64,000 bases of DNA from Patescibacteria group bacterium (GCA_043818355.1 JBDRFX010000021.1:3228-67227); one strand, 5' to 3'. Shown: positions 21,319 through 55,900, counted from the stretch's first letter. Notes: generated from the sequence alone by a model not told the origin. Program-made: numbers and translations.

Positions 21319-21352
21319 TTTTTTTAAAATCAATTTCGTATAATTAAACATA

Positions 21353-21490: not shown

Positions 21491-21518
21491 TTTTAATGCA
21501 GATATATAATAGCAAATT

Positions 21519-32171: not shown

Positions 32172-32906
32172 TTATTCTAAGACGCTTACCGAGACAGAGG
32201 CAGATTTTTCGCATTCTCCTTTAATTTCAGCGATCCATGTCCCAGGATTCATTTTGTTGGTAAGGTCAAATGTTTTATTTGTAGTACTAGTTTCTCCCGT
32301 GGCTTCCCAAGTAGCTACTACGTTATCATAGGTGTCGTAGAGATTTATTTCAGAGTTAGAATTAGGCAGGACGTTATAAATATTATAGCTGATATATAGA
32401 TAAGGACTTGTATTGCCCATAGAAACGGGAGCAAAGGTTAAATAGAGATCACAAGATGGAGTTATAAGTAAATTTTCTGTTTTTTCCATTTGCTTCACGT
32501 CTGGTAGTACTAAAACAGTGAGCTCTGGATTGATTGTTTTAATAATTAAGAATGAACTTAAAACAAGAACTAGCCCAATAAGAGCTGATTCTATGGTTTT
32601 TTTTGCTTCTTCTGTTTTACTTGAATTTCCAGCTGAACTTAACCAACCAAAGCCACCTGATACAAGTCTTGCAAAAGCTGCCAGTCCAGAAATAGTCACA
32701 ATTAGAGAGTATCCCCAAGCTATTACCTGATTAATATCTTGATCTTTGTTTAAATCAAAACCACCAAAGCTTGGATAATCAAGTTCAAGACAAAGTTCAT
32801 CTTCTGCTATTTCAGTATCTCTACACGTTTTGGCCAATACATTCACGCTTGCAATTGAGAGCAAAACAACTATTAAGATAAGTAAATGTTTTTTCTTCAT
32901 ATTCAT
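32172..32906 (-). CDS. Secreted pilin-like protein (signal peptide, two hydrophobic helices, C-terminal beta-rich extension)
   Basis: 244 aa. Cleavable leader MNMKKKHLLILIVVLLSIASVNVLA. Hairpin LIVTISGLAAFARLVSGGFGW...ALIGLVLVLSSFLIIKTINPEL resembles VirB2/TrbC-type pilins and the C-terminal module of the 848-aa and 134-aa proteins. Confidence 0.45.
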   Translation of the reverse strand: MNMKKKHLLILIVVLLSIASVNVLAKTCRDTEIAEDELCLELDYPSFGGFDLNKDQDINQVIAWGYSLIVTISGLAAFARLVSGGFGWLSSAGNSSKTEEAKKTIESALIGLVLVLSSFLIIKTINPELTVLVLPDVKQMEKTENLLITPSCDLYLTFAPVSMGNTSPYLYISYNIYNVLPNSNSEINLYDTYDNVVATWEATGETSTTNKTFDLTNKMNPGTWIAEIKGECEKSASVSVSVLE

Positions 32907-32942
32907 ATTATATCACAATAATATCGTATTTTTTTAAGAAAT

Positions 32943-33326
32943 TTATTTTTTAAAAAGAGAATTCATTGGGTTTAATTGTATTTTTCCAATGAATTGCTCT
33001 AAAACAAAACGAGTCCAAACTAATCCAATATTTACAAAAGATACTAGATTGATTGTTAAGTCTTGCCAATTGTTCTGAATCCACTCTTTGAATCCTTTGT
33101 CTCCAACAGAACTATTCGGTAGGTTGTTTGACCTGATAAATATCCAGCTACCAATAAGAGCAAAAGCAATCAAATAAATAATTTTACAAACAATAGTGCC
33201 AACGAAAGGAATAAAAGAAAAAATAGAAGAGAGAATATCAAACAAAAAGGCCAAACTTAGTATAGCTATGGCTTCAATACTAGTTAGGGAAATATTGTTT
33301 TCTTCGCTCTCTTCTATTTGATCCAT
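32943..33326 (-). CDS. Small integral membrane protein of the T4SS-like operon
   Basis: 127 aa. Acidic N-terminus, then 3 TM helices. Start is 1 nt after the VirB4 stop. Confidence 0.4.
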   Translation of the reverse strand: MDQIEESEENNISLTSIEAIAILSLAFLFDILSSIFSFIPFVGTIVCKIIYLIAFALIGSWIFIRSNNLPNSSVGDKGFKEWIQNNWQDLTINLVSFVNIGLVWTRFVLEQFIGKIQLNPMNSLFKK

Positions 33327-33327
33327 T

Positions 33328-35115
33328 TTATTGATTTTCCTCTATTTTTTTTGCTTCTTTAATTTTTAAAATTTCTTTTGGGTCAGTAGTAATAATTTGG
33401 TCTTCTGTGTAAGAGGCCACAATTTTAATAGCTACATGTTTTTGTCCAGCAAAGAAGATTCCCTCTCCTACTTCAGCCTCTAACAAAAGACTTTTTTCTT
33501 CATCGGTAAGATTAAATGTTTTTTGTAATAGATCAATCGTAGCAGGGCTTTGTTTTAAAAGAATTTGCATAGAAGAATTAGTAATGATTGGCTTTCCATA
33601 GTCGGACTTCATAAAGTCTCCTACGTCCTGAGTAATAGTTGTTACTCCCAGCCAATATTTTCTAGCTCTTTTAGCCATTCCATATAAGAAAGAGGCTCCA
33701 TCTTCAGATTGCATAATCCACCAAGCTTCATCCACCACTAAAATTCTTTTTTTCAGTTCAGATCTTACTTGGTTCCAAATATATCTCATAATAATGAACA
33801 TGGCTATTGGCCTCAATTCATCCTCCATATCTCTTATGCCAAAAACCACCAATGGCTGATTAGTAGAGATGTTTGTATGCTGGTTGAAGAAGTTGCCAAA
33901 GCTTCCTTTGGTAAACTTTCTAATTCTTTTTAATAAGGAATCAGATCCTTCCATAGTTGAGAGAACATCTTCCAAGTCTTCCATTAAAGGAATATTAGTA
34001 ATCCAGGTTGAAGGGTCTGTTTCTGGGGTGATGTCTTTGGCAGCATATGTCTCAGTTAGGGCCCTATCAATAACAGCATCTTCTTCGGGGGTTAATCCTT
34101 TAAGCATTGCTCTCATTAATCCAACCAAATTTATGATATTAGATCTTAAAACATCTTGTGGTTTCTCTCCTTCTCTGGGTGTTGGCAAATCAAAAGGATT
34201 AACATGGCTAGGAGAACTTAGAGAAATATCAAAGAAAGATCCGTCAACAGAATCAGATAAATGTCGGTATTCATTCTCTGGATCTAAGATAATAACATCT
34301 ACCCCAATCATTAGAGATCTTAATATTTCTAGTTTTATGGCATAGGATTTCCCAGAACCTGATTTAGCAAAAACTATAGAATTAGCATTTTCTAAACTAA
34401 ATCTATCAAATAGAATTAAAGAGTTATTATGTCTATTAATTCCATATAATATTCCGTCAGAAGAGCTTAAATCAAAAGATGTAAATGGGAAGATAGAAGA
34501 CAATGGTCCTGTATTCATTGATGTATGAACTTGTAATTGATCTAGTCCATAAGGAGCACAAGAATTAAATCCTTCTTTCTGTTGGTATAGAGCTGGTTTA
34601 ATATATATAAGTCTAGACTCTAAAATAGATCTTAAGGTTGTTTCTACTTCTTTTAGGTTTGCTTCCTCATCCCCATAAACGGTTAAATATACTCCCATTT
34701 TAAACATTTTTTCTTGGGCTGTTTGAAGGCTGTCTCTTAATCCTTCCAAATCTTGATGGGCTATTTCTAAAGAAGGATCTCTAATGAGTCCTTTTTCTTG
34801 TCTAGACATCATTTCAGCTTGAACTTCCGTCACCTTTCTTCTTAGTTGTCTTAAAATAGTTCCTGTTTCTGTGGGATGTATAAAAATAGAAACATCCATT
34901 GGATCGTCTAAGTTGATAATAGGAGAAAACCATCCAGTGCTTAAATATCTAGGATAGGAGAATATGAAAAAAGGTTTGGCTATTTTCTTACCAAGCTTAA
35001 GTTGATTTGAAGATAGAGAAATAGAAGAAGGGGCAATGATGTCATTCACCTCCATTGCTTTAGTTTCAAATATTTCTTCTTTTTCTTTTTTTTCGTCTTT
35101 TTTAAAAATGCTCAT
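33328..35115 (-). CDS. virB4: VirB4/TraC/CagE-family type IV secretion ATPase (C-terminal ATPase portion)
   Basis: 595 aa. Walker A AKSGSGKSYAIK. Walker B ILVVDEAWWIM (DEAW is typical of VirB4). Confidence 0.75.
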   Translation of the reverse strand: MSIFKKDEKKEKEEIFETKAMEVNDIIAPSSISLSSNQLKLGKKIAKPFFIFSYPRYLSTGWFSPIINLDDPMDVSIFIHPTETGTILRQLRRKVTEVQAEMMSRQEKGLIRDPSLEIAHQDLEGLRDSLQTAQEKMFKMGVYLTVYGDEEANLKEVETTLRSILESRLIYIKPALYQQKEGFNSCAPYGLDQLQVHTSMNTGPLSSIFPFTSFDLSSSDGILYGINRHNNSLILFDRFSLENANSIVFAKSGSGKSYAIKLEILRSLMIGVDVIILDPENEYRHLSDSVDGSFFDISLSSPSHVNPFDLPTPREGEKPQDVLRSNIINLVGLMRAMLKGLTPEEDAVIDRALTETYAAKDITPETDPSTWITNIPLMEDLEDVLSTMEGSDSLLKRIRKFTKGSFGNFFNQHTNISTNQPLVVFGIRDMEDELRPIAMFIIMRYIWNQVRSELKKRILVVDEAWWIMQSEDGASFLYGMAKRARKYWLGVTTITQDVGDFMKSDYGKPIITNSSMQILLKQSPATIDLLQKTFNLTDEEKSLLLEAEVGEGIFFAGQKHVAIKIVASYTEDQIITTDPKEILKIKEAKKIEENQ

Positions 35116-35118
35116 ATA

Positions 35119-35748
35119 TTACCTAGTTAATTCAGGAGGAATTTCCGGATAGTATCCTATTGAGGCTTCTTCTGGATGATGCAAAGACCAAAATATTTCG
35201 ATCAGTTCAGATGTATTTAAGGGAACAGACTTTAATCCACATCTTCTCAATCCCATGGCTACAAATTCCATTCTTTGCCAAAGTTGAGACTTGCCTCTTT
35301 TAAGTCTTTCTTCAGATATTTCTTCTTTAGATTTTTTACTGAATAATCCATCTCCAGCTCCAGGTATTTCTATTAAAGTAAAAGGAATAACAACATAAAA
35401 GCTTTTTGACATAATAGATCCTTTAGAAATTAATTCTTGTACAAAGTTTCTATATTCTGCTGTTTGTATTTTCAATAATTCATTTGATTGTTCGGCTTCT
35501 AATTTTTCTAGCTTTTCTAGATATCCCGTTATATTAAGTTTCCTAGATTGAATTACTATTTGAATAGTAAAGTCGAGTGAATTTAAGAAGTTTTGAAATT
35601 GATATATAATGGCGTTTTGTTCATCAAGCGATTTTAAAGCAAAGTTTAAAGAAGATACCATTAAAACACCCCTCATGGAGTTATTTTTTAAAATCACTAC
35701 CCCCTCTTTAATTTCTTTAATTTCTAAAAAATCTTGACTTGAAGACAT
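35119..35748 (-). CDS. Probable VirB4 N-terminal domain, in the same frame as the ATPase ORF and separated from it by one TAA codon
   Basis: 209 aa. Its TAA stop (35121-35119) is followed by one codon and then the ATG of the 595-aa ORF in the same frame. Combined length about 805 aa equals full-length VirB4. Confidence 0.4.
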   Translation of the reverse strand: MSSSQDFLEIKEIKEGVVILKNNSMRGVLMVSSLNFALKSLDEQNAIIYQFQNFLNSLDFTIQIVIQSRKLNITGYLEKLEKLEAEQSNELLKIQTAEYRNFVQELISKGSIMSKSFYVVIPFTLIEIPGAGDGLFSKKSKEEISEERLKRGKSQLWQRMEFVAMGLRRCGLKSVPLNTSELIEIFWSLHHPEEASIGYYPEIPPELTR

Positions 35749-35765
35749 TTTGTTTTATATAAATA

Positions 35766-36170
35766 TCAATTCTTTTTTGTTTCAACGAATGTTTGCAATT
35801 TTTTAATTTGGCTGTCTCTAGAAGTTTTAAATGGACTTTCTTTTGTAGATTTCACTAATTCAATTTTCTTTTCAACCATTTCAATCTTTGCCTCTCCCTT
35901 TTTCCAAATATACATTTTAGGAGAAGAATTAAACTTCATAGCATTGACTAGAAAGTTTGGTAAATCAACGCCATCTATTTTCAAAAAAGCTAAGGCTGCA
36001 GCACCTGCTATTAATATGGCGCCTGAGAACATAAATATTTCAAAAGGAGCAACAAAGTAAACCATGAAAGCAATTACTCCAGCGATACCAAAAAATCCGA
36101 ACTGCTTAAAGGTAAGAGGTCCTACTATTTTAGAATCTACTTCAATAAATTGTGGAACTGTGAACCGCAT
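35766..36170 (-). CDS. VirB3/PrgI-like small two-TM membrane protein
   Basis: 134 aa. Two adjacent TM helices (FGFFGIAGVIAFMVYFVAPF / IFMFSGAILIAGAAALAFL). Sits immediately upstream of VirB4, as VirB3/PrgI genes do. Confidence 0.4.
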   Translation of the reverse strand: MRFTVPQFIEVDSKIVGPLTFKQFGFFGIAGVIAFMVYFVAPFEIFMFSGAILIAGAAALAFLKIDGVDLPNFLVNAMKFNSSPKMYIWKKGEAKIEMVEKKIELVKSTKESPFKTSRDSQIKKLQTFVETKKN

Positions 36171-36184
36171 GTGTTTAGTCTTAA

Positions 36185-36628
36185 TTAGATTTCTTCAATA
36201 GTTTCTCTATAGCTATCTTTTCTGAGTGTTTTCTTGTTTGTTGTCTCTCTTATCTCTCGATTATCTATTGGCCCAGCTTTTTTTATTTTTGATGGAGCTA
36301 ATTTTATAGAGTAGATTTTTTCTAAGTCTTCTTTTACTGGAGCAAAAATTATTTCTTGAATTTCTTGGTTGACTTTTTGAGCCTGCTCTTTTCCTAAGCT
36401 TAATTCTTGTGTTAACGTTTGTTTTAAATTTTCTGGAGAAAGAACGCCAAGTAGTGTTTGTCCTATAAAACTTGCTGTTTGTGATATTGTGTCAATGTCT
36501 ATATTATTTCTATCGCAAATATCAAAAATATTTGTTGCAGTTTCTTCAGACAAAATATGGGCTTTCATTTCACTTGGAAGCTTTTGAAATAAATCCCAAT
36601 ATTGATTTTTTGTTAGCTCTTTTGTCAT
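36185..36628 (-). CDS. Hypothetical soluble protein in the T4SS-like operon
   Basis: 147 aa, no TM, no recognisable motif. Confidence 0.35.
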   Translation of the reverse strand: MTKELTKNQYWDLFQKLPSEMKAHILSEETATNIFDICDRNNIDIDTISQTASFIGQTLLGVLSPENLKQTLTQELSLGKEQAQKVNQEIQEIIFAPVKEDLEKIYSIKLAPSKIKKAGPIDNREIRETTNKKTLRKDSYRETIEEI

Positions 36629-36661
36629 ATAAATAAAGATTATTTTTCGAAATTACTTTTT

Positions 36662-39112
36662 TTATTCTTCTTTCTTTTTTTCTTCTTTCTTTTTTTCTTT
36701 AGAGGATTGTCTTCCGATTTCTTTTACTAAGTTAGTAGTGAATCCTATCAAGCTTTTATCCACGACTTTCTTTATTTCTTGAGTGTTGCTTTTTTTGAGC
36801 TTAAGATTTTCCTCGTTTTGGTCGAGTCTGTTTTGGGTGCTTTTAAGTATATTTTCTAGATTTTGAACTTTAAAACCAGAGGCTCCAGCATTTCTTGCTT
36901 CGCTAATTTTCGTTGTAGTCTCTTCCATTTTTTCTTTTAATTCGCCCATATTTTTGCTCATTTTGTTTATTTCTTGAAGTCCTTTTGTATAGATGGCTTG
37001 ATTTTTTTCAATTTTAGCAATTTCTTTTTGTATTTCTTCAGTGTTTCCTTTTAGCTCTGCGAAATTTAAACCGGCATGTTTTAACGCGTTAATCTTAATG
37101 GTATTTGGCGTGATTGTTGAGATTGTTGTTTGATTGCCTCGGATTTGGATTACTTGTTTTATATGCTGATTCAGTTTTGTTTTGTCTATGCTTTCTATTT
37201 CTGGTGGCAACTTTAAAAACGCTGGACTACTCATGAGATATTTAACAAGGGCAGGATTTTCATGTACTAAATTTTCACCTCTACTATTTATAGCGCTTTG
37301 CATGATGTCGCGTGTTTTTTGATCAGAATTTTTTAAAGTTGCTCCAAGTTGACCTGGAGTTAATAGTGGTGCTAATTCTTTTCCAAGATCTGTTTCAAAG
37401 AATTTTTTATCAAGAGTTTCCATGTTTTTGTTAGATACGCCTGCAAATGCATTGCTAAGTATTTCTCTCTTGATAGCTGTTTTGGCATTGTTTTTTCCAT
37501 CTATAATGTTTTGTATTTTTGTCTTAATTTCTTGACCGCTTAGACTACTGTTCGCCGTTAAATTGCCTACTGCGACTCCTAGTTTTTGATCTTCTATAGA
37601 ATCCATAATTTTCATTATTTCAAATTGTTCCGCATAGTCAGAAGTCATTTGGGATTCTAAATCATCGGAGTTTCCTAGCTTGTCAAGGATAATTTTTGAT
37701 TTTATGGAGGCGACAGTCTTAGACGGCTTTATTCCTAAAACTTTATCGAGCTCTTTCTTTTTAGAGTCTTTTTCTATTATTCTTCCAGCTAATTCTGTGG
37801 TCCCTCCTATTCTTCTAGTAGTCCATCCCCTAAGACCAGTACCTTCGGATGCTCTCATTTTGTCTCCCATATCCCTCATTTTTTGACCAACTACTTCTCT
37901 TACTTCACTAATCCTGTCTTTTGTTATCGCACCAGCAATTTTCTGACTTTTTTCAGCTAATTTACTAGCAGCTTTAGGCATAGATTGAATTGAAATCATG
38001 ATTCCAAACCATAACATAGCTACAGAGATCATTGGAGCTAATATTTTTCCCAATAGATCGTTAGTTTGTGTTAGACTCATGCTATTTACAGTATCTTTTA
38101 ATGGAAGAGACAAGGTTGTTTCTAATTGAAAAGCAGTCAGTACTTCGTCTTGCTTAATCATTATTAAGTTAGACAAATATAAGAAAAAGCCAATAGGAAT
38201 TCCAACCGTAGCCCAAGCTACAAATTCTTTCCACCAACCCTTCCAACTTAATACGTCGGGTAATAATGATTTTACTAAATCAGAGTCTGTGGGTAGAACT
38301 TGAGAGAAGAAAGCTATTGGAGAAAGAATCATCAAAATCCATAAATAGATAATTCTGACAAACAATATTATAAAGACGGTAAAATAGGTAAAAGCAGAAA
38401 AGGCATAGAACATAATTAAAACTAAGCCATAGATCATAATGCTGGCAAAGTTGCCCATATAGATAGCCAAATTGTTAACTTCAGAATTTTCTTTAAAAAA
38501 GAATATGGATTGGAAGGAACTTGTAATATAATTCACTGCTTGGTCAAGTAGAGAAGGTAGGCTAGATATTTCTCCTGTTTTATTAAAAAAGAAATTAGTG
38601 AAAATATTGGCAATGTCTACTACAAAGCCGACTAAGACGGGAGTGAAATTAATTAAAAGAATAACAGCAATTAATTTTGGTAATGTTTTTTCAACCTCAT
38701 AGTTTTTTAATCTTAAGATTTTAGCTAGACCAATAATGGCTAGTATTAAGAGAAAAAACATATTAATAAAATCTCTCGTAAAGGCCCATCCTATCAACAC
38801 GATAGCATTTTGCGTAATGCTTACGTTTAAGCAAACAGTCATCAGCCAAGATAAAATAGAGGCTATTGTGGAGAAGATTAGTCCTGCTACCATGGCTAAA
38901 AGTCCCATAATTAAAGCCATAAAAAACAGCGGTATTTTAGTTATCAAAAGAGTACTAGAGACAAGTATTTTTTGGATAGCCTCTGATAGAGTTTCTAAAA
39001 TTCCAGCTTCTGCCATCTTAGTTGGTATCATGCTTAAGTAAAGAGAAAGCAGAATAGCAGAAAAAATTAATTTTCTGTTTTTAAATAATGTTTTGGCTAT
39101 TTTTTTTATCAC
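36662..39112 (-). CDS. VirB6/TrbL-like polytopic membrane protein with a roughly 450-aa hydrophilic coiled-coil C-terminal extension
   Basis: 816 aa. At least 8 TM helices in the N-terminal 370 aa, then K/E-rich coiled coil ending EKKKEEKKKEE. Confidence 0.5.
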   Translation of the reverse strand: MIKKIAKTLFKNRKLIFSAILLSLYLSMIPTKMAEAGILETLSEAIQKILVSSTLLITKIPLFFMALIMGLLAMVAGLIFSTIASILSWLMTVCLNVSITQNAIVLIGWAFTRDFINMFFLLILAIIGLAKILRLKNYEVEKTLPKLIAVILLINFTPVLVGFVVDIANIFTNFFFNKTGEISSLPSLLDQAVNYITSSFQSIFFFKENSEVNNLAIYMGNFASIMIYGLVLIMFYAFSAFTYFTVFIILFVRIIYLWILMILSPIAFFSQVLPTDSDLVKSLLPDVLSWKGWWKEFVAWATVGIPIGFFLYLSNLIMIKQDEVLTAFQLETTLSLPLKDTVNSMSLTQTNDLLGKILAPMISVAMLWFGIMISIQSMPKAASKLAEKSQKIAGAITKDRISEVREVVGQKMRDMGDKMRASEGTGLRGWTTRRIGGTTELAGRIIEKDSKKKELDKVLGIKPSKTVASIKSKIILDKLGNSDDLESQMTSDYAEQFEIMKIMDSIEDQKLGVAVGNLTANSSLSGQEIKTKIQNIIDGKNNAKTAIKREILSNAFAGVSNKNMETLDKKFFETDLGKELAPLLTPGQLGATLKNSDQKTRDIMQSAINSRGENLVHENPALVKYLMSSPAFLKLPPEIESIDKTKLNQHIKQVIQIRGNQTTISTITPNTIKINALKHAGLNFAELKGNTEEIQKEIAKIEKNQAIYTKGLQEINKMSKNMGELKEKMEETTTKISEARNAGASGFKVQNLENILKSTQNRLDQNEENLKLKKSNTQEIKKVVDKSLIGFTTNLVKEIGRQSSKEKKKEEKKKEE

Positions 39113-39177
39113 AGGTTAAAAATTATTAATAACTTTTATAATTACGTAATATTTTATTATATACTATGAGTTCATTT

Positions 39178-41724
39178 CTAGAAAGAGATTTGCCACCATG
39201 ATCCCATAGAAAATCCTAAAAGACCCAACAACATATTCAGGAATATCCAAGCAAAGAAAATAATAAAATATCCTTGCCCTGCCATTGTCCATGCTCTTTT
39301 TACTTTAAGCAAAACATTAGGAAAGTCATCATACATAGAGCTAAGGCTTTGTGTATAAGCAAAGTAGACATAGGCTCCAGTCCCTAAGGTTAATAGAGTT
39401 AAAATCATTAAGCTAACTCTCCATAATAAGAAATCTAGAATTATTCTAAACAAGAAAAAAAGATGTTTAATTTCGCATTTTTCCATTTCATTCCAAGGAG
39501 TATCTAGATTGTTTGTGTATCTTCCGCAGGGTACTAATCCAGCTTTTGAGGGGATATCAGGTTCTATTAAACTAAATTCTAGAGTTTCACTAACATATCC
39601 GGCTTGACTGCATTCGTTATCTAAACAAGCTTGGACATTCCAACTATAAGTACCAAGGCAAATTAAATCATTGAGAAAAATAGAATTAGAGCCAATAATA
39701 GATCTAAGAATTTCTTTACCTCCTTGGCTTTGACATTCTTCTGATTCTTGTTCTAGCGGAGCTTTTAGAGATAAGGTTGCAAGATAATAATTAGCACCTT
39801 CCACATTATCCCATTCTATTTTTTTATTATTTGTTACCATTTCTCCATCATTTTCAGGTATAGTATTTTGAGGAGCAGGAAGTTTTTTTGTTTCAAATAT
39901 TTGCTTATCAGTCCAAGAACCACAATATTCATTTAATCCTTCTTGATCAGCGCATGTTTTAACTCGGAAAGAATAATTTTTTTCTTGTAACGCTCCTTCA
40001 TTAAATCCGAAACTTAATATTGATTTGGGAGCAGCTCCAATGGGCTTAATAGTATTTTCTAGAATAATATTTGACCCCTCTTTTATTTCATATTTATAAG
40101 AAAGTGCTCCAGGGATATCCTCCCAGTTTATTTGAATAGGAAAAGAAGAATTATTAATATTTATGTTTTGAGGAGTTTTTCCTGTTGTTTGAAACTTCCA
40201 AGCAGAAGTGGTATTTTCTTCACAATTTTTTATAGTATCTTTTATATGACTTGAACATGCTGAAACTTGCCAGTTATAAATAGTATCTAAATTAAGATCT
40301 TTCCAAAAATGATCAAAATTAACAACTAGTCCATATTCCATAAGCTCTTTCCGAACAGTAGTATTATTTTTTTTGATTTCATAAAAATATGTTATAGCTC
40401 CCAATGTATCACTCCACTCCAAGTTACTTAAAAGATTAACAACAGGGATTGAATTAGGAAAGTTAGGATTGTATTGGGGAAATATTTTTTTGGGAATAGC
40501 GATGTCTACGAATTCAGTACGAAATCCCCACTTTTGGCTAGTTTCTGTTTCGCAAACATTTCCCTCTGTGTCAGAGCAAATAGTGACTTTCCAGTCATAG
40601 TCAGTATCTTTGGTGAGAGCTTCTAATCCTTCAAATTGAAGATAATTAGGCAAATTACCTTCTGTTTCTAATATTGTTTCATCCCAGATGAATTCACCAT
40701 CGCTATGTCTGTCTATGTTTAATAAATATGAGCCAGCAGAATCAGCTGGACACCATTCAAGCTTTACTGGAAATAAAACAGGTTCTTCAGTTTCAATAAA
40801 GGGCCCTGTCCAATCTTTGTCTTTTGGAGTTTTTAATTCAGGAGTTAAGGCAGTGGAAAAACTCCATTCTTGTACGTCTTCGCTTTCAAATGGTTTGCAA
40901 TCAGTTTCATTGAATCCGCAACAAGGTACAACTTTCCAACTTTCATTGCTACCTGCCCGAAATGTACATGCATTAGGAACAAATTCAGAGGCAGTTATAT
41001 TAACAGCAATATTTTTTTCATCATTATTAAATTGAATCTTATATGATTCAACACCATCATTTTTTTGCCATAGCTCCACATCATCCCAGTCTAGTTTTAC
41101 TGGCAGAGAAATATTATTACTTGGAAGACTTTTTTCTGGATTGCTATAATCTCTTGGAAAATATGGGCTATCATAATATCGGGGTTGTCCTTTTACTGGC
41201 TCTAAACAATCTCCCTTACAATCACAAGTATAAGTAGACTTATTTTTGGTCCAATTTGTTCCTCCAGAACAAGTTTGCCAACTTTCACAATCCTTGTCTT
41301 TGGTGTAATTTGTTTCACAATCAATATCTCTAGGCTCGCTCCAGCTGGTACATTTTTCTATGTATTTTCCGCTGGAATTTTTTTCACAACCGTCACAAGA
41401 TCTAGTTATTATGCCAGAGCATATTTTTTTTCTTATATATTCATCAACGCAAATTTTTTGTACTGGATTGCAACTGTATTCATTCCATTCCGCAATATCA
41501 ATTGTTAATTTTTCTGGTGCTTTATCACATTCTTCGCTCCAATGGCATTCTTCTACCTCGCCAACTGTAAAGCATTCATTGCAATATTGAGTTCCACAGG
41601 TATCGCATTTTCTAGTAGTGTCTTTAGCACAAGGAGATTCAGCTAAAACAGGCCCTATATATAATAGGGTTCCCAAAATGATTAGAAACAGAAAGAATAC
41701 TTGAGAAACTGAAAGCTTATTCAT
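39178..41724 (-). CDS. Giant secreted Cys-rich surface protein with W-rich repeat domains and a C-terminal pilin-like two-helix anchor
   Basis: 848 aa. Signal peptide. About 30 Cys in the first 200 aa (CAKDTTRKCDTCGTQYCNECF...). Repeated about 100-aa W-containing modules. C-terminus FIIFFAWIFLNMLLGLLGFSMGSWWQISF is homologous to the 134-aa protein at 49431-49835. Confidence 0.5.
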   Translation of the reverse strand: MNKLSVSQVFFLFLIILGTLLYIGPVLAESPCAKDTTRKCDTCGTQYCNECFTVGEVEECHWSEECDKAPEKLTIDIAEWNEYSCNPVQKICVDEYIRKKICSGIITRSCDGCEKNSSGKYIEKCTSWSEPRDIDCETNYTKDKDCESWQTCSGGTNWTKNKSTYTCDCKGDCLEPVKGQPRYYDSPYFPRDYSNPEKSLPSNNISLPVKLDWDDVELWQKNDGVESYKIQFNNDEKNIAVNITASEFVPNACTFRAGSNESWKVVPCCGFNETDCKPFESEDVQEWSFSTALTPELKTPKDKDWTGPFIETEEPVLFPVKLEWCPADSAGSYLLNIDRHSDGEFIWDETILETEGNLPNYLQFEGLEALTKDTDYDWKVTICSDTEGNVCETETSQKWGFRTEFVDIAIPKKIFPQYNPNFPNSIPVVNLLSNLEWSDTLGAITYFYEIKKNNTTVRKELMEYGLVVNFDHFWKDLNLDTIYNWQVSACSSHIKDTIKNCEENTTSAWKFQTTGKTPQNININNSSFPIQINWEDIPGALSYKYEIKEGSNIILENTIKPIGAAPKSILSFGFNEGALQEKNYSFRVKTCADQEGLNEYCGSWTDKQIFETKKLPAPQNTIPENDGEMVTNNKKIEWDNVEGANYYLATLSLKAPLEQESEECQSQGGKEILRSIIGSNSIFLNDLICLGTYSWNVQACLDNECSQAGYVSETLEFSLIEPDIPSKAGLVPCGRYTNNLDTPWNEMEKCEIKHLFFLFRIILDFLLWRVSLMILTLLTLGTGAYVYFAYTQSLSSMYDDFPNVLLKVKRAWTMAGQGYFIIFFAWIFLNMLLGLLGFSMGSWWQISF

Positions 41725-42559
41725 TAATATATTTTAAACTTTTTGCTAAATTTATCCAATCTTGGATTTTTAGAGACTCAGCCCTTCTACTTCCTTCAAT
41801 TTTTCCTTTATTCAATAATTTTGAAATTTGTTTTTTATCTAAATTAAGTTCTTGAGAAAAATTATTGGCTAATTGTTTTCTAGGATGAGAAAATCCAGCT
41901 TTCATAATTTTAAAAAATTCTGGAGCAAGAGTTTCTCTTTGTTGTTCCAAAACGTTTTTAGACAACATGGATACTTCAAGAATTGCAGAGTCAATAGTTG
42001 GAACTGGCCAAAAAGAGTTTTTAGAAATTAAAGAAATAATTTTAGGTTGAGCAAAGAATTGAACAGAGTTAGACAGAATGGTCATATCAGGAGGCGTGCT
42101 ACAAATTCTTTGGGCAACTTCTTTCTGTATAATAAAAACCATTTTTTCAGGTTTATTGGGCTCTTCTAAGAATTTCTTTATAATAGGAGAGGTAATATAA
42201 AAAGGCAGATTGCCCACTATTTTATACTTCTTTAGATTATGGGTATTGAAGTTCAAAATATCATCTTGAATTATTTTGATGTTTTCAAAATCTTTTAAAA
42301 TTTCCTTAGAAGCTTTAACCAATTCAGGATCTTTTTCAACTCCAATGACTTCCCCAGCTTTTTCTGCAAGGAATTGAGTAATGCTTCCAAGACCAGAGCC
42401 AATTTCTATAACAGTATCATTTTCATTCAAATCACAGGTTGTAATAAATTTAGCAATAATATTTTTATCTATTAAAAAGTTCTGCCCCATTTTCTTTTGT
42501 GGTTTAAGATTATAGTCCTCCAAGATGACCTGTATTGCCTTAGCTGAATATAGATTCAT
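41717..42559 (-). CDS. rsmA: 16S rRNA (adenine1518/1519-N6)-dimethyltransferase KsgA/RsmA
   Basis: 280 aa. NFLIDKNIIAKFI and SAM motif EIGSGLGSITQFL. Stop overlaps the start of the 848-aa gene by 8 nt. Confidence 0.9.
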   Translation of the reverse strand: MNLYSAKAIQVILEDYNLKPQKKMGQNFLIDKNIIAKFITTCDLNENDTVIEIGSGLGSITQFLAEKAGEVIGVEKDPELVKASKEILKDFENIKIIQDDILNFNTHNLKKYKIVGNLPFYITSPIIKKFLEEPNKPEKMVFIIQKEVAQRICSTPPDMTILSNSVQFFAQPKIISLISKNSFWPVPTIDSAILEVSMLSKNVLEQQRETLAPEFFKIMKAGFSHPRKQLANNFSQELNLDKKQISKLLNKGKIEGSRRAESLKIQDWINLAKSLKYINE

Positions 42560-42647: not shown

Positions 42648-43688
42648 TTGTCTTTGTTTAATTACAAAAAAATAACCCTATATATGTCACGGAAAAACAT
42701 TTTAATTGTTCTGATTGTGCTTACGGCTTTAATTTCATTGAATATTTTTAAAAACGAATCTCCATCTCTGAGTATGGAGAATTTTCAGTTTACCAACCCC
42801 AGCGATCTTTTTTTGAGTTCAATAGAAAAGTTTTCCATTGAATCCCCTGATTTATTGCTAATTCAGAAAAACAGTTTAAGAGCATCAATGCCTCCTACGG
42901 TTTTTTCTCCTCAAGTCTTAGGATCCTTAGTTGGAACAAGTGTTGAATCAACAGCAAGAAACTATATCATTGAATATGTTGTTGAATCAGGAGACACTCT
43001 TTCAGTTATTGCCAATAATAACAATATTTCTTTGAATAGTTTGCTTTGGGCCAATGATTTAACTCAATATTCTAAAATTAAGGTTGGACAAAAATTAGTT
43101 ATTCCTCCGGTTTCAGGAATAATTTATGTTGTTAAAAAAGGAGACACACTAAGTCAAATAGTTGAAAAATACAAAGGTAGCGTTCAAGAAATAGTTGAAT
43201 TTAATAAATTGTCAAGCGAATCAGATATTTTTATAGGAGATATTGTGGTTATCCCAGGAGGTAAGATGCCAGAAGGATTAACTCGTATTGTTAGTATTCC
43301 GGTTGGTGCTTCGTATTTTATTTATCCTTGCGAAGGTACTATTACTCAGGGATTGCATGGAGACATTAGAAATGCTGTAGATATTGCCAATAAGTGTGGA
43401 AAGCCAATTATTGCTTCAGCTTCAGGTATAGTTCAAAGATCAGGAACGATTTGGATTGGAGGTCAAAGAATAACAATTTTGCATCCCAATGGAGTAGTTA
43501 CTTATTATGGTCATTTATCTAAGATTTTTGTTACGTCAGGCCAAGAAGTAAGAAAAGGTGACATTATTGGATTAATGGGCAATACAGGCTATACAATAGG
43601 AGTTACTGGTTGCCACCTTCACTTTGATGTCAGAGGAACCGCAAACTTTTTAGGTGGATATTCAGTTGGAACAAAGTTAAGCTGGTAA
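42648..43688 (+). CDS. LysM-domain M23 metallo-endopeptidase (peptidoglycan hydrolase)
   Basis: 346 aa. Two LysM repeats (YVVESGDTLSVIA, YVVKKGDTLSQIV) and M23 motifs HGDIRNAVD...GNTGYTIGVTGCHLHFDV. Confidence 0.85.
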   Translation: MSLFNYKKITLYMSRKNILIVLIVLTALISLNIFKNESPSLSMENFQFTNPSDLFLSSIEKFSIESPDLLLIQKNSLRASMPPTVFSPQVLGSLVGTSVESTARNYIIEYVVESGDTLSVIANNNNISLNSLLWANDLTQYSKIKVGQKLVIPPVSGIIYVVKKGDTLSQIVEKYKGSVQEIVEFNKLSSESDIFIGDIVVIPGGKMPEGLTRIVSIPVGASYFIYPCEGTITQGLHGDIRNAVDIANKCGKPIIASASGIVQRSGTIWIGGQRITILHPNGVVTYYGHLSKIFVTSGQEVRKGDIIGLMGNTGYTIGVTGCHLHFDVRGTANFLGGYSVGTKLSW

Positions 43689-43771
43689 TAAAAACAATAT
43701 TTTACAAAAAATTAAGCCGCTATATTCCATTGGAAAATAGCGGTTTTAAAAAATAAGAAAAAAAGGTGGGA

Positions 43772-44170
43772 TTATATGTGTTTTTCTAGGAAATTTGCGA
43801 AGCCTGCCTGTATCTGGGGTGTAACATGAACAGATATGTTCTCTTCAAGTTTTTTACTTGTTCCGGGGACAACTACGTATCTACCCATTTTTATATAGAC
43901 TCCATTTAGCACACTGGAGCCAGAAACACTAAGCATTTCTTTTGCCTGTTGTAGACTAATAAGTTTTTCTGCCTCGCAAAAAAAGAATGGCTCGCTCTTT
44001 TTCCTTTTTCTCAGGCTTCCTATTAGTTTTAATTGGTTATTGCCAGATATTTCTAGCGCTAGTCGTGCTGTTCTCGTTCCATTCGACAACACAAATTTTT
44101 GTGATGTTATGCCGATTGGAGCCATGCTTTTCCCATATTCGCAGTATCCTGATGGTTTTTCTTCTATCAA
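43772..44170 (-). CDS. Hypothetical protein
   Basis: 132-aa ORF, no recognisable motif. Confidence 0.3.
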   Translation of the reverse strand: MIEEKPSGYCEYGKSMAPIGITSQKFVLSNGTRTARLALEISGNNQLKLIGSLRKRKKSEPFFFCEAEKLISLQQAKEMLSVSGSSVLNGVYIKMGRYVVVPGTSKKLEENISVHVTPQIQAGFANFLEKHI

Positions 44171-44321
44171 TCTTACTCCTCGATGCTTTCCCCCTTATTC
44201 AAATTAAGAATAGGGAGATTGCAAATTAAAATATATATTAAATATGTTTTTTAGGCAAATTTTTCTCAAAAACAAAAAGCCATCTACGGGCTTAAAATTC
44301 CTTTAAGATGTCTTTTTTAAA

Positions 44322-44690
44322 TTACTTTTTGCACTTTAAGCAAATTCTAGCTTGAGGAGAAATTTTTAATCTTTCAATATTAATAGGCTTGCCACATACC
44401 TCGCATATGCCATATTTTTCTTTTTCAATCTTTTTTAGAGCTAAATTAATATCTTTAAATTTAGTTTCTAAGCTTTCTTCTATAGAAAGTAGCGTGCTGT
44501 ATTGTTCTACTTCATCAGCCTCTTTCTCTAGGTCTACTCCTTCAGAACCTGTTCCCATGGAAGGAAATTTAGTGTCCCAATCCCCTTCGGTGGTACTGTC
44601 TTTCTCAGCAAAACCACCTAGCATTTTTTCTAGTTTTTCTTTTTCTGCTTTTAATTTTTCCTTTAATTCTGTTTTTAATTTTTCATTCAT
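44322..44690 (-). CDS. DksA/TraR-family C4 zinc-finger protein
   Basis: 122 aa. N-terminal coiled coil, C-terminal CEVCGKPIN...CLKCKK zinc finger. Confidence 0.7.
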   Translation of the reverse strand: MNEKLKTELKEKLKAEKEKLEKMLGGFAEKDSTTEGDWDTKFPSMGTGSEGVDLEKEADEVEQYSTLLSIEESLETKFKDINLALKKIEKEKYGICEVCGKPINIERLKISPQARICLKCKK

Positions 44691-44694
44691 GTTT

Positions 44695-45552
44695 TTAATT
44701 TTTTATTCTAGCTATTATTAACCCCTGTCGACCATTATTTTTTAAATATTCTTCTAAAGATTCTTCGATTACTTTTCCTTTTATTGAAGAGGCATGTCTT
44801 AAAAGAATTTTTTCACTAATTGATATAATTCCAAGATGTGTTATGTCTAGCCCTTCATTCTTAGTATAGAATCCTATCAAGTCTCCATTTTTTAAAAACT
44901 GATAAGATTCCATAAGATTCTCTCTTGGAACGAAACATATTTCTTTATCAATAGGAGCAATTCCCTCTACCCATTCTTTGCTATTAAGTTCTTTTTGTTC
45001 GCAAATAAATCCTTCAAAAGTATTTGATATATTATTTATATTATATGCATTATCTATCCATTGGGCAAAAAAATGATTCCTTTTGATAAAACTGACTTCT
45101 CCATTTTCATATCTGATTAATTTTAATTTATCATAAAAGTCTGAAAAGTCATTTGATAGAGACAGAGCCACAACATAATCCAAGAAAGTAGAACAATCCA
45201 TTTCATCTAACTTGATTACAAGATTTTCTGACAAATCCTTATCAGTGTTTAGGGTGTCAGCCTTATACGGAATTTCTAAGAACATTTTTGAAATATAGTC
45301 TATTCTATCTCCGTCATTATATTCTTTAGATCTTTCAATTAATTCTTCAAGGGACTGAATATCCCAGTTACCCAAAGAAATTTCTTTTTTAAATTTTTCT
45401 TCTGGTAGAATAACCTCTGACTCTCTAACTGGAAAACAATAAGCCAGCGTTATGGCTATTATCAAAAAAACAAACGAAGAAAGTATTTTCTTCATACTTA
45501 AAGAGATAATTGTTGTGTGTAAAAATCTAACGTTTCCCAAGAAAAATTCCAA
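44695..45552 (-). CDS. Hypothetical secreted protein (possibly DUF1460/amidase-like)
   Basis: 285 aa. Internal Met gives signal peptide MKKILSSFVFLIIAITLAYC. C-terminal GLDITHLGIISI...HASSIKGKV. Weak assignment. Confidence 0.3.
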   Translation of the reverse strand: MEFFLGNVRFLHTTIISLSMKKILSSFVFLIIAITLAYCFPVRESEVILPEEKFKKEISLGNWDIQSLEELIERSKEYNDGDRIDYISKMFLEIPYKADTLNTDKDLSENLVIKLDEMDCSTFLDYVVALSLSNDFSDFYDKLKLIRYENGEVSFIKRNHFFAQWIDNAYNINNISNTFEGFICEQKELNSKEWVEGIAPIDKEICFVPRENLMESYQFLKNGDLIGFYTKNEGLDITHLGIISISEKILLRHASSIKGKVIEESLEEYLKNNGRQGLIIARIKN

Positions 45553-46421
45553 GGATCTGTTTGTTCTGGAGAAATTTCATTTCTTCCTAATATGTTTTCT
45601 TGGTTAATTGGATATTCTTTTTGTAAATAATTAACCAGCAGGGCTAAGGATTTATATTGGTTTTCATTAGGACTTTCGTCTATTTTATAAATCAACTCAA
45701 TACCTATAGAAAAATCATTAATAATATTCTTTCTACTACCATCTGGCATTGCTCCACTACCAGCATGATGAGCGATATATTCATTAGGAATTAAAAGATA
45801 GATTACTCCTTCTCTGTTAATAAAGTAATGGGGAGCAACTTTATAGTTTTTATATTTTTCAAGTATTGTGAAAATATCGTATGAATCTTCGCTAGTACTG
45901 TATCCTGAATGAATAATAATAGTATCAATATCACGAGGCTCGCTGGGAACTTTATATCCCCACGAAATAAGGTTGTTTTTTATCAGTTCCTCTATGGGCA
46001 GTTCCACTTTTTCTGGTTCTTTTATTTCGGGAATTTTTTCAACAATTTCCTCTGGATTTATTGCCTCCGGTATCTCTTCTTGATTATTTTTATTTATAAT
46101 TTTAATAACCAAAAAGCCAGCTATGGATAAAAAGATTAAGATTATTGCTATTCTGACGAGATATTTTTTAGCTTGAGAGGGTCGATAAATCTTTTTAGGT
46201 ATAATATCTTCTGTTACAGTCTGTGGGTCGGACGTAGGAAGTGGTGTGGACGGAGATGGAGTAATAATTTTTCCTCCACTTTTTTCAATTTCCAAAGACG
46301 CAATCCTTTCTCTTTCTGTTTGGGCTGCATTTTCCCTGAGACTTTTCAGGTCTTTTTGCATTGTCCTAATGTCTTCTCTTCTTAAGAACTTTAATTTTTC
46401 CTCTTTTTGTTCTTCTGCCAT
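45498..46421 (-). CDS. N-acetylmuramoyl-L-alanine amidase (Amidase_2/PGRP fold) with N-terminal coiled coil and TM anchor
   Basis: 307 aa. TIIIHSGYSTSE...APHYFINREGVIYLLIPNEYIAHHAGSG...SIGIELI. Confidence 0.7.
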   Translation of the reverse strand: MAEEQKEEKLKFLRREDIRTMQKDLKSLRENAAQTERERIASLEIEKSGGKIITPSPSTPLPTSDPQTVTEDIIPKKIYRPSQAKKYLVRIAIILIFLSIAGFLVIKIINKNNQEEIPEAINPEEIVEKIPEIKEPEKVELPIEELIKNNLISWGYKVPSEPRDIDTIIIHSGYSTSEDSYDIFTILEKYKNYKVAPHYFINREGVIYLLIPNEYIAHHAGSGAMPDGSRKNIINDFSIGIELIYKIDESPNENQYKSLALLVNYLQKEYPINQENILGRNEISPEQTDPWNFSWETLDFYTQQLSL

Positions 46422-46432
46422 TTAAAGAGATT

Positions 46433-48529
46433 TTAAGATTTTTTTACGATACTTTTAAGTTTCAAATTAATTCTGCCTTGTTCGTCAACAGAAATTACCT
46501 GGACTTGCACTTTGTCACCAATGTTAATTACATCAGTAACTTTATCTATTCTCTTGTCAGATAACTTAGAAATATGAATCATACCATCTTTTCCAGGTAG
46601 TAATTCTACAAAAGCGCCAAAGTCTAAAATCTTTACAACAGTGCCTTCAAATTCTTGACCAACTTCAATTTCTTTGGTCAAAGTTTCTATCCAATCCATG
46701 GCTTTCTGAGCATCTTTTTCTGATTCAGCTGTTACAAAGATTTGTCCATCCTCTTCAATATCAATTGTAACATTGCAGGTTTGAGTAATCTCATTTATTA
46801 TCTTACCTCCCTTTCCAATCACATCGCCAATCTTTTCAGGATCAATTTTAATGGTCAATATTCTAGGAGCAAATGGAGATAGATTCTTTCTTGGTTCAGG
46901 AATAACTTTCTGAATTTCTTTTAAGATTTCTAAACGAGCTTTTTGACCTTGTTTGAATCCTTGTTCTAGAATTTCCAAGGAGATTCCTCTAATTTTAATA
47001 TCCATTTGAACAGCAGTGATTCCTTTTTCTGTTCCAGTTATCTTTAAGTCCATGTCTCCGAAATGATCTTCTAATCCTTGAATATCAGTTAAGATTTTAA
47101 AGTCATTGCCTTTTCTAGCCAAGCCCAAAGAAATACCTGCTACAGGGGCCTTAATTGGCACTCCTGCATCCATTAGGGCAATGGTTGATCCACAAGTGGC
47201 AGCCATAGAGCTTGAGCCGTTAGAAGACAATATTTCTGTTACAACTCTGATTGTATATGGAAAATTTTCTTGAGAAGGCATAACAGGCTTCAAAGCTTTT
47301 TCGGCTAACATGCCATGTCCTATCTCTCTTCTGCCAGGTCCCCTAATAGGTCTTACTTCTCCCACACAATAAGGTGGAAAGTTATAGTGATGCATATATC
47401 TTTTTTCTCCAGAAACCTCCATGCCATCTAATAGCCTAACGTCTCCAGGAGCACCCAATGTTAAAATAGACAATGCTTTGGTTTTTCCTCTGCAAAATAA
47501 TCCAGATCCATGAGTTCTTGAGAACAATCCATCTTTTACAGATATCTTCCTTATTTCATCCATTTTTCTGTTATCAAGTCTTTTGTCTTGCAATATTTTT
47601 TCATGGAAAAGTTCATCAGTAAAATCTTCTAAGAAGTTTTCTACAGTTCCATTATTATCTTGTTCGGGAAGTTCTTTGTTAGCAATTTCTAACATTTCTT
47701 CTTCTATCTTTTTTAGACCATCCTCTCTTTCTCTTCTATCTTGAATTTCAATAGTTTTAGATAGTTTGTCTGTTAAAAGATTTCTAATATCTTTCTCAAC
47801 TCCTTCGGAAATAGTTTTTGCTATAAATTCTTGTTTAGTTTTACCAACTTTTTGAGCAATTTTATTCTGAAACTCAATTATTTTTTCAAATTCTGGTTGA
47901 GCTGATTTTAAAGCTTCAAGCATTATTTTTTCATCTGCTTCTTTGGCCTCAGCTTCAATCATATTAAATTCTAATTTATTTTGATTAAAAACAGCAGAGA
48001 TAGCTAGGTCAAAAACACTTTGTTCTCTTTGTTCATAGGTAGGATTGAGTATAGTTTTTCCATCAACTTGTCCTATCCTGAGAGGAGCCACAGGTCCTAA
48101 CCAAGGAATATCAGAAACTAAAAGAGCCACTGAGGCGGCTAATAATCCAATAACATCGGCATCGTTTTCTTTGTCCCAAGAGAGACAGGTGATAATAATC
48201 TGTACTTCTTTTTTAAACCCTTTTGGGAAAAGAGGTCTAATAGCTCTATCAATTAATCTTGAGACTATAACGGCTTCGTCAGAAGGTCTTCCTTCTCTTC
48301 TCATATAGCGCGATCCTAGAATTTTACCAGCAGCATAGTTTTTTTCTTCATAGTTAACAGATAAGGGAAAATAGTCTAATCCATCCTTTTGAATTTCAGA
48401 TATCACGGCAGTAGCCAAAACAACAGTATCTCCATACTGAATTATGCAAGATCCTGAAGCCTGTTCTGCTAAATCATTAATTTCAACTGTTAAGTCTTTT
48501 TCTCCTATTTTTAAAGTAAATTTTTCCAT
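46433..48529 (-). CDS. pnp: Polynucleotide phosphorylase
   Basis: 698 aa. Two RNase PH domains, KH (GKGGKIINEI) and S1. Confidence 0.95.
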   Translation of the reverse strand: MEKFTLKIGEKDLTVEINDLAEQASGSCIIQYGDTVVLATAVISEIQKDGLDYFPLSVNYEEKNYAAGKILGSRYMRREGRPSDEAVIVSRLIDRAIRPLFPKGFKKEVQIIITCLSWDKENDADVIGLLAASVALLVSDIPWLGPVAPLRIGQVDGKTILNPTYEQREQSVFDLAISAVFNQNKLEFNMIEAEAKEADEKIMLEALKSAQPEFEKIIEFQNKIAQKVGKTKQEFIAKTISEGVEKDIRNLLTDKLSKTIEIQDRREREDGLKKIEEEMLEIANKELPEQDNNGTVENFLEDFTDELFHEKILQDKRLDNRKMDEIRKISVKDGLFSRTHGSGLFCRGKTKALSILTLGAPGDVRLLDGMEVSGEKRYMHHYNFPPYCVGEVRPIRGPGRREIGHGMLAEKALKPVMPSQENFPYTIRVVTEILSSNGSSSMAATCGSTIALMDAGVPIKAPVAGISLGLARKGNDFKILTDIQGLEDHFGDMDLKITGTEKGITAVQMDIKIRGISLEILEQGFKQGQKARLEILKEIQKVIPEPRKNLSPFAPRILTIKIDPEKIGDVIGKGGKIINEITQTCNVTIDIEEDGQIFVTAESEKDAQKAMDWIETLTKEIEVGQEFEGTVVKILDFGAFVELLPGKDGMIHISKLSDKRIDKVTDVINIGDKVQVQVISVDEQGRINLKLKSIVKKS

Positions 48530-49307: not shown

Positions 49308-49347
49308 ATTGTTTTAATTTAAATTTTTGTTTTTAAGTATTTTTATG

Positions 49348-49420
49348 TGCCCCGCGCAGGACTCGAACCTACAACCAATTGCTTAAGAGGCAACTGCTCT
49401 ACCGATTGAGCTAGCGGGGC
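49348..49420 (-). tRNA. tRNA-Lys (anticodon CTT)
   Basis: Manual cloverleaf: acceptor GCCCCGC/GCGGGGC, D-arm GCTC-AATCGGTA-GAGC, anticodon loop CTCTTAA, T-arm GTAGG-TTCGAGT-CCTGC. CCA not encoded. Confidence 0.85.
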
Positions 49421-49430: not shown

Positions 49431-49835
49431 TTATGGGCAATTGATTTGCCACCAAGTGCCAATGCCAGTCCACTCAGATACTCCCATGAAAGAAAGAAAG
49501 GTGTTTAAGAATATCCAAGACATTGAAATGACTAATAATCCCACTACAGTTGCTTTAAATATTTCTTGAGCTGTTTTTAGGTGATTTTGATTTGCTCCTG
49601 CTGCCATATAATAACCTCCTCCGATAACCAACATTAATGTTGCTACAATAGGAGTAAGTCTGGTTAAAATAAAATTGATGACGTTATTGATAAGTACAAA
49701 AAGATGACAAAACTTGCAGGGATTAGCTATTGTTCCACAAGGAATGAATTCATAAGCCATTGTGGTTATTGGGACTAAACAAAGGAATAAAAAAAGTAGA
49801 TTGCCCAATAACTTCATTTTGATTTTGTTTGCCAT
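49431..49835 (-). CDS. Pilin-like small membrane protein (VirB2/TrbC-like two-helix module)
   Basis: 134 aa. N-terminal TM, Cys-containing loop (CGTIANPCKFC), then LMLVIGGGYYMAAG...VISMSWIFLNTFLSFMGVSEWTGIGTWWQINCP, homologous to the C-terminus of the 848-aa protein. Confidence 0.45.
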   Translation of the reverse strand: MANKIKMKLLGNLLFLFLCLVPITTMAYEFIPCGTIANPCKFCHLFVLINNVINFILTRLTPIVATLMLVIGGGYYMAAGANQNHLKTAQEIFKATVVGLLVISMSWIFLNTFLSFMGVSEWTGIGTWWQINCP

Positions 49836-49844
49836 AGATTTTTG

Positions 49845-49918
49845 TACCCCCGACAGGACTCGAACCTGTAGTCTCTGCGTCCGAAGCGCAGCGCCATATC
49901 CAATTAGACTACGGGGGT
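49845..49918 (-). tRNA. tRNA-Arg (anticodon TCG)
   Basis: Manual cloverleaf: acceptor ACCCCCG/CGGGGGT, anticodon stem CTGCG/CGCAG with loop CTTCGGA, T-arm ACAGG-TTCGAGT-CCTGT. The D-stem has only 3 pairs. Confidence 0.7.
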
Positions 49919-54229: not shown

Positions 54230-54234
54230 GAATT

Positions 54235-55878: not shown

Positions 55879-55900
55879 AAATTAATTAAAAAATAATAAT

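Follow-up and report, generated by a model that had tools for sequence, protein, structure and literature searches.

A type IV secretion system (T4SS) of a Patescibacteria clade has been described whose VirB4 ATPases are monophyletic and nested in the MPF-FATA class, with TrsD as the commonest associated component (Quinonero-Coronel et al., 2025; PMC12102498). These systems have PrgI/VirB3, VirB6 and PF18895 pilins, are almost devoid of relaxases, include VirB1-like proteins with LysM/M23 domains, and often lie beside dnaA, dnaN, rnpA, rpmH and ksgA (PMC12102498). In Southlakia epibionticum, the T4SS cluster and its pilins are essential for epibiotic growth, and neither a relaxase nor a coupling protein was found (Wang et al., 2023; PMC10633639). 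The Patescibacteria systems have been reviewed as unique among monoderm T4SSs for their pili (2025; PMC12857230), and tubular structures that are possibly T4SS pili have been reported at the parasite-host interface in a cultivated relative that feeds on host RNA (bioRxiv 10.64898/2026.06.21.733656). Here we analysed a 64-kb stretch of Patescibacteria DNA (the window) and within it a gene block on the minus strand (32172-42559). We conclude that this block is very probably a chromosomal T4SS typical of Patescibacteria (the candidate phyla radiation, CPR) in the arrangement of the class Paceibacteria, an ancient MPF-FATA derivative that has lost its link to conjugation and would serve as a pilus-assembling host-contact machine.

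All nine closely packed minus-strand open reading frames (ORFs) that an initial annotation of this DNA had proposed are present in the block, with the coordinates and lengths it gave. They are listed here in gene order (aa, amino acids; TM, transmembrane), followed by the hairpin at the end of the block:

41717-42559, minus strand: ksgA/rsmA, 16S rRNA dimethyltransferase, 280 aa, first gene of the co-oriented block (TIGR00755, PF00398)
39178-41724, minus strand: 848-aa secreted protein with a signal peptide, Cys-rich head, immunoglobulin (Ig)-like repeats and C-terminal pilin module
36662-39112, minus strand: 816-aa extended VirB6-like polytopic membrane protein, about eight hydrophobic helices in residues 1-400 and a charged, coiled-coil-like cytoplasmic tail of about 420 aa
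36185-36628, minus strand: 147-aa soluble protein, family unannotated, with a six-helix N-domain followed by a disordered linker and C-terminal DxYRExIE
35766-36170, minus strand: 134-aa PrgI/VirB3-type protein (PF12666), TM helices 19-37 and 45-63
35119-35748, minus strand: 209-aa TrsD-like protein, equivalent of the VirB4 N-terminal domain (NF045975, NF045971, NF041427)
33328-35115, minus strand: 595-aa VirB4 ATPase without the N-domain (NF045971, PDB VirB4 matches, PrgJ alignment)
32943-33326, minus strand: 127-aa protein with TM helices 21-39 and 49-67, role unassigned
32172-32906, minus strand: 244-aa pilin-domain protein, signal peptide, PF18895 hairpin at about 58-130 and a C-terminal extracellular domain of about 115 aa
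32129-32158, no strand assigned: hairpin resembling a bidirectional intrinsic terminator, separating the end of the operon from the convergent jag gene (fold energy -9.4 kcal/mol, z = -3.55 against shuffles)

The ksgA and 848-aa ORFs overlap by 8 nucleotides (nt), and the gaps that follow the 848-aa ORF are, in order, 65, 33, 14, 17, 3, 1 and 36 nt. The tight packing described earlier is real, with two gaps, the first and the last of these, slightly above the upper bound of the 1-35 nt originally claimed. The hairpin lies 13 nt beyond the end of the block, where a terminator had been predicted, and consists of AAAAACAGAC, a 9-nt loop and GTCTGTTTTT, preceded by an A-run and followed by a T-run. 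Since jag is convergent and lies opposite this hairpin, a bidirectional terminator is plausible. A consensus terminator scan limited to loops of 3-8 nt did not detect it.

The 595-aa protein contains the Walker A (GSGKSY) and Walker B (DEAW) motifs originally read in it, and scored 373 bits against NF045971, the VirB4-like CD1110 family (NCBIfam cut-off 325), covering profile positions 178-734 only. Its PDB matches were exclusively VirB4 proteins (4ag5, E 4.8e-40; TrwK, E 7e-6), and it aligned to residues 228-772 of pCF10 PrgJ with 26% identity (E 1e-43). FtsK/HerA identity, which the initial annotation had named as the alternative to VirB4, was rejected, as only VirB4 families and VirB4 structures were matched. 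The search returned more than 8000 VirB4 homologues, the best 120 of which are about 595 aa long. We also scanned one genome per species, which gave 596 loci, and examined the best 80. All of these 80 loci and the 120 homologues come from Patescibacteria/Parcubacteria metagenome-assembled genomes (MAGs), with identities of 60-91%, which would be compatible with a place in the Patescibacteria VirB4 clade, and the 80 loci are all of the Parcubacteria/Paceibacteria.

The first part of VirB4 was found in the 209-aa protein, in agreement with its earlier description as a VirB4 N-domain: it matched positions 103-233 of NF045975 (E 2.4e-11), positions 5-119 of NF045971 and, weakly, TrsD (NF041427, E 2e-3), and PF26593 (TraC-like) was found on its orthologues. 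The two ORFs share a frame, with only TAA-TAT between them before the ATG. In related loci TrsD and VirB4 were always separate ORFs (0 fused among 74 adjacent pairs examined), and any of the three frames may hold the junction. Because no fused ORF was found, the junctions occupy three frames and the best homologues of VirB4 have about the same length, the split is ancient and not the mark of a pseudogene. An alternative genetic code, or readthrough at the in-frame junction, was considered and rejected: the stop is TAA, stop-codon usage in the window is standard, and related loci keep the split whichever frame the junction takes.

The membrane components also found profile support, for PrgI directly and for VirB6 through relatives. 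The 134-aa protein, originally called VirB3/PrgI-like, scored 42.5 bits against PF12666 (cut-off 27). Three of 31 homologues of the 816-aa protein matched TrbL/VirB6 (best E 3.3e-6), and together with the predicted structure these matches bear out its earlier VirB6-like label; it appears to be a VirB6 extended on the cytoplasmic side by a long, charged tail. In about one third of the VirB6-like homologues, double zinc-ribbon domains (DZR/Zn_Ribbon_1) take the place of the charged tail, suggesting that the cytoplasmic tail of this channel protein is modular. PDB sequence profile searches with the 816-aa and 147-aa families returned coiled-coil noise only.

The order of genes around this core is conserved among the 80 loci. 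It runs from ksgA through one or more variable secreted proteins, the VirB6 family, the 147-aa family, PrgI and TrsD to VirB4, and continues with a two-TM protein (in some loci), 1-4 pilin-domain proteins, jag/yidC/rnpA and dnaA/dnaN. TrsD is present in 77-78 of the 80, PrgI in 73-74 and the VirB6 family in about 60, and a pilin domain was found in 61 related loci. Among loci with a full flank, 48 of 53 have dnaA on the downstream side, and 35 of 46 have ksgA on the upstream side in the orientation of virB4. The block is thus conserved in relatives, as expected of the lineage-specific chromosomal operon that had been proposed, and ksgA stands at its head both here (TIGR00755, 225 bits, cut-off 171; PF00398, E 5e-51) and in related loci. 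Compared with a close relative (locus L083), VirB4 is 86% identical, TrsD 84%, DnaA 82% and KsgA 71%; identity falls to 50% for the pilin, 38% for the 848-aa protein and 32% for the VirB6-like protein. The motor has diverged less than DnaA, and the genes for the exposed parts evolve fastest in this neighbourhood, a gradient that fits a host-interface pattern.

Three proteins with a VirB2-type pilin hairpin are encoded in the window. The 244-aa protein, correctly described earlier as pilin-like and secreted, scored 30.1 bits against PF18895 (cut-off 26.6), matched NF045849 (Mycoplasma pilin-like protein of an integrated conjugative element) at E 1.3e-5, and gave a weak MG2 (Ig-like) match at 177-242. 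The 848-aa protein is also the Cys-rich, pilin-tailed surface protein originally proposed: a signal peptide (1-28) is followed by a variable head (29-197) that holds 19 of the protein's 36 Cys; then come five Ig-like repeats, each about 95 aa long (198-294, 310-406, 424-516, 519-616 and 623-721), and a pilin module (728-848) with a PCG..C..H motif, two TM helices and a G.WWQI end. A word-index search of 5.8e9 proteins found only 10 homologues of it (28-35% BLASTP identity); in this family 7 of 10 members match PF25788 (Ig) and 8 of 10 match PF18895. Its tail aligned with the PF18895-type pilin profile (hhalign 92%, E 5.5e-7). The third protein, which lies outside the range covered by the initial annotation and was not noticed there, is unlinked to the operon:

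49431-49835, minus strand: bare 134-aa pilin (signal peptide and pilin module only), about 7 kb from the operon, between tRNA-Lys (49347-49420) and tRNA-Arg (49844-49918)

The bare pilin fell below the PF18895 cut-off (E 7.9e-4), matched a pilin-domain profile derived from the loci, and matched the 848-aa-tail profile at E 8.2e-18. The conserved 120-aa tail of the 848-aa protein aligned with it by BLASTP (4e-14) and hhalign (98.8%), and the tail is its full-length paralogue. The bare pilin is a candidate for the major pilin.

Large pilin-domain proteins are common in this group. The 83 pilin-domain ORFs found in the 61 related loci and this window have a median length of 374 aa and a maximum of 1809 aa, and in 66 of the 83 the stretch beyond the hairpin exceeds 100 aa. 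The hairpin stands behind the ectodomain in the 848-aa protein, and in front of it in the 244-aa protein and most related ORFs. In the VirB2/TraA topology both termini face outward, and by analogy both N- and C-terminal extensions would therefore be extracellular.

Two small proteins of the block belong to families that found no assignment in Pfam. The 147-aa family comprises 1706 representative clusters and was found in 60 of the 80 loci, usually flanked by the genes for VirB6 and PrgI. The structure model of the soluble 147-aa protein is all-helical, with a confident six-helix domain and then a disordered linker, and the DxYRExIE motif is invariant at the C-terminus of the family. Searches found no PDB relative and no informative fold match, and Pfam scans of 58 members assigned no family, with one chance-level match (Erf4, 1 of 58). 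In one related locus (L048, 950-2230, plus strand) a single 426-aa ORF carries a 147-aa-family domain (9-100) and a PrgI domain (290-411). This could be a natural fusion, which would hint at physical contact between the 147-aa protein and PrgI, or else an assembly or frameshift artefact. The 127-aa two-TM family occurs in 24 of the 80 loci, directly after virB4 in most, and the protein matched nothing in Pfam or NCBIfam.

Pfam scans of about 58 window ORFs with a length of 100 aa or more detected no relaxase, VirD4 (type IV coupling protein, T4CP), integrase or transposase, in line with the claim that no mobility genes are visible; outside the block, the scans covered most ORFs of this size and gave housekeeping families only. 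Four intergenic regions scanned for repeats contained short AT-rich repeats only, and GC content stays at 0.29-0.36 throughout the window with no compositional island.

How does this locus compare with described systems? Its core is that of the published Patescibacteria-clade T4SS (PMC12102498), namely VirB4 with a separate TrsD, PrgI/VirB3, VirB6 and PF18895 pilins, and so is its position by dnaA, dnaN, rpmH, rnpA and ksgA, with a LysM/M23 peptidase nearby and no nearby relaxase or T4CP. The gene calls of the initial annotation for a VirB4/VirB6/VirB3/pilin machine were upheld by profile, structure and synteny tests, and its suggestion of an undescribed system was not, as both the clade (PMC12102498) and its essentiality (PMC10633639) have been published. 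What we did not find in PMC12102498 are the pilin module behind a 700-aa Ig-repeat ectodomain, the mostly large Paceibacteria pilin-domain proteins, the 147-aa family with DxYRExIE and the 127-aa two-TM family. With respect to the literature consulted, only accessory parts are new here: the Ig-repeat protein with its pilin tail, the 147-aa family and the pilins that bear extensions.

The S. epibionticum ML1 cluster (SEML1_0006-0019; PMC10633639) has the same order of VirB6 ... PrgI, TrsD-like and VirB4 (about 612 aa in ML1), and shares the PF18895 pilins, the absence of a clustered relaxase or coupling protein, and a location near the chromosome start. It differs in belonging to the class Saccharimonadia, in its 300-aa PrgI and in its pilins, six small ones encoded in tandem on the other strand; unlike this locus, the cluster also includes genes for an NTF2-like (VirB8-like) protein and a phage-tail lysozyme. 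Essentiality was shown in ML1, whereas the present locus is known from sequence. The MPF-FATA systems of pGO1/pSK41 (trs) and pCF10 (prg/pcf) have the same core order of TrsC/PrgI, TrsD and TrsE/VirB4, a VirB4 that is likewise of the CD1110 family, and a monoderm architecture without VirB7, VirB9 and VirB10. In contrast to our locus they are plasmid-borne, with a relaxase, VirD4, oriT and LPXTG adhesins, and have no VirB2-type pilus. Comparisons of single pCF10 sequences with our families (PrgF and PrgG with the 147-aa family, PrgH with the 816-aa protein, PrgF with the pilin profile and PrgG with the 127-aa protein) were insignificant, a weak negative given that the templates were single sequences. 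The MPF-T systems (R388 Trw, Agrobacterium VirB) share the VirB4 ATPase domain and the concept of a two-helix, VirB2-like pilin; they differ in being diderm, with an outer-membrane core complex, VirB5, VirB8, VirB11 and VirD4, and in having small, unfused pilins.

Several points weigh against reading the block as a pilus-assembling T4SS of this type. The 816-aa protein itself had no direct profile match to VirB6, and its assignment comes from homologues and a predicted structure whose Foldseek E-value is weak (0.1). Neither a VirB8 nor a VirB1 homologue was identified at the locus: there was no profile match to VirB8, and the 127-aa and 147-aa proteins do not have the expected TM-plus-NTF2 layout. 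A coupling protein or relaxase may sit outside the window, and many unlinked VirD4 homologues are known in Patescibacteria (PMC12102498). Proximity to oriC was taken from marker genes only; a search of the window for DnaA boxes gave 20 matches where 17 were expected, and these were not clustered. Large fused domains are possibly incompatible, on steric grounds, with a helical pilus. Finally, function is extrapolated from another class, the Saccharimonadia, to an organism of which only DNA has been seen.

With these points in mind, we propose the following mechanism. The block encodes a core for the cytoplasmic membrane, namely the extended VirB6-fold channel (816 aa), PrgI/VirB3 (134 aa) and the VirB4 ATPase; VirB4/TrsD, docked on PrgI and VirB6, would pull pilin modules out of the membrane. 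The extracted modules would then polymerise where the cell touches its host, giving a short pilus or a tube. On this pilus or tube, or on the membrane, the 848-aa and 244-aa proteins would show variable, disulfide-rich Ig-like ectodomains that may act as host-specific adhesins, and the cytoplasmic 147-aa protein may be an adaptor that works through its conserved C-terminal peptide. The machine would carry protein or nucleic acid between epibiont and host, rather than conjugative DNA. We tentatively raise a further possibility, that the Paceibacteria pilin hairpin is a general export-and-display module, with VirB4/TrsD building a pilus or array with host-specific adhesins and the 147-aa adaptor partly replacing the coupling protein.

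The rival that survives best, though we consider it unlikely, is that no pilus is made: the pilin-like hairpins would only anchor adhesins at the surface, and these adhesins would have the VirB4/VirB6/PrgI core as their membrane translocon or assembly factor. The long extensions after the hairpin described above suit this idea, as does the general lack of pili in Gram-positive MPF-FATA systems (PMC12102498), but small bare pilins are present both here (134 aa) and in other loci, pilin arrays are essential in S. epibionticum (PMC10633639), and tubular structures have been reported (bioRxiv 10.64898/2026.06.21.733656).

Rather more doubtful is an import machine like archaeal Ced or Helicobacter ComB, which would draw host DNA, RNA or other macromolecules into a cell unable to make nucleotides. 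The ATPase has weak, sub-threshold similarity to CedB (E 4e-13) and CedD (E 2e-5), the window scans contain no relaxase or coupling protein, a polynucleotide phosphorylase (PNPase) gene lies about 4 kb upstream (46433-48529), and the cultivated relative combines host-RNA feeding with possible T4SS tubes (bioRxiv 10.64898/2026.06.21.733656). However, VirB4 is above the cut-off of the conjugative CD1110 family and scores far below those of the Ced families (NF041017, 48.8 bits, cut-off 700; NF053655, 23 bits, cut-off 600), T4SS essentiality in S. epibionticum is independent of ComEC-mediated DNA uptake (PMC12857230), and the direction of transport is not readable from sequence.

That the block is what is left of a decaying integrated conjugative element, in which an in-frame stop has broken VirB4, is hardly conceivable and was rejected: the single TAA and one codon between the two in-frame ORFs and the lack of a relaxase in the window would suit it, but the split is universal in the related loci (74 adjacent pairs examined) and occurs in three frames, VirB4 is 76-91% identical across many genomes (above the conservation of DnaA), GC content is uniform, synteny with the oriC marker genes is fixed, and neither an integrase nor repeats beyond the short AT-rich ones were seen in the ORFs and intergenic regions scanned.

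The surroundings of the T4SS block were also annotated. Downstream, on the opposite strand, are jag, yidC and rnpA (with a small rpmH-like candidate ORF), then dnaA and dnaN. Around dnaA there are only single DnaA boxes with one mismatch, at 28866 and 30328. GC skew tracks the coding strand and does not locate the origin; its cumulative minimum, near 50 kb, coincides with a switch in gene orientation. Upstream are a divergent LysM-M23 peptidase, dksA and two amidases:

42648-43688, plus strand: LysM and M23 peptidase, divergent (PF01476, PF01551), beside ksgA in 10 loci

We infer that this peptidase is a candidate cell-wall-remodelling helper or VirB1 substitute. Three cell-wall hydrolase genes lie upstream of ksgA, the other two encoding an AmiA-like amidase (44695-45552, minus strand) and an Amidase_2 protein (45498-46421, minus strand), and the trio (42648-46421) could provide VirB1 substitutes. 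The DksA/TraR zinc-finger protein is encoded at 44322-44690.

Further away, the stand-alone PilB reported at 20014 is indeed a PilB-like T2SSE ATPase of 434 aa (20014-21318, plus strand; PF00437, E 4.5e-115) with no pilus-assembly neighbours (PilC, PilM, PilT) beside it; the gene after it encodes a lamin-tail-domain (LTD) protein (region 20014-22241, plus strand). A sensory module at 14102-17612 (minus strand) consists of SBP_bac_3, a HAMP-PAS histidine kinase and two stand-alone receivers without an output domain. The window also holds a near-complete set of archaeal-type ether-lipid genes, in a CPR bacterium (52959-60462, also 54235-56524 and 60464-61129):

52959-53516: CarS-like CDP-archaeol synthase
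56526-57647: geranylgeranyl reductase
57655-58491, minus strand: UbiA prenyltransferase
58583-59680: polyprenyl synthetase
59680-60462: PcrB/GGGP-synthase family

These are interleaved with two copies of bacterial PlsY and a FakA-like kinase, and no glycerol-1-phosphate (G1P) dehydrogenase was seen in the window. The gene set points to membrane lipids of a mixed or isoprenoid ether type.

Few machines are known to be essential for the epibiotic way of life in the CPR, a very large bacterial radiation, and the Patescibacteria T4SS is one of them. Almost every one of these ultra-small bacteria has such a cluster, chromosomal and non-conjugative, beside its replication origin. The present locus adds no new kind of system and is a clean, complete Paceibacteria example of it. 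It offers three leads: a widespread, unannotated cytoplasmic family of 147-aa proteins with a C-terminus that resembles a docking peptide, surface components whose divergence far outpaces that of the motor, and the fusion of pilin modules with variable Ig-repeat ectodomains that could set host range.

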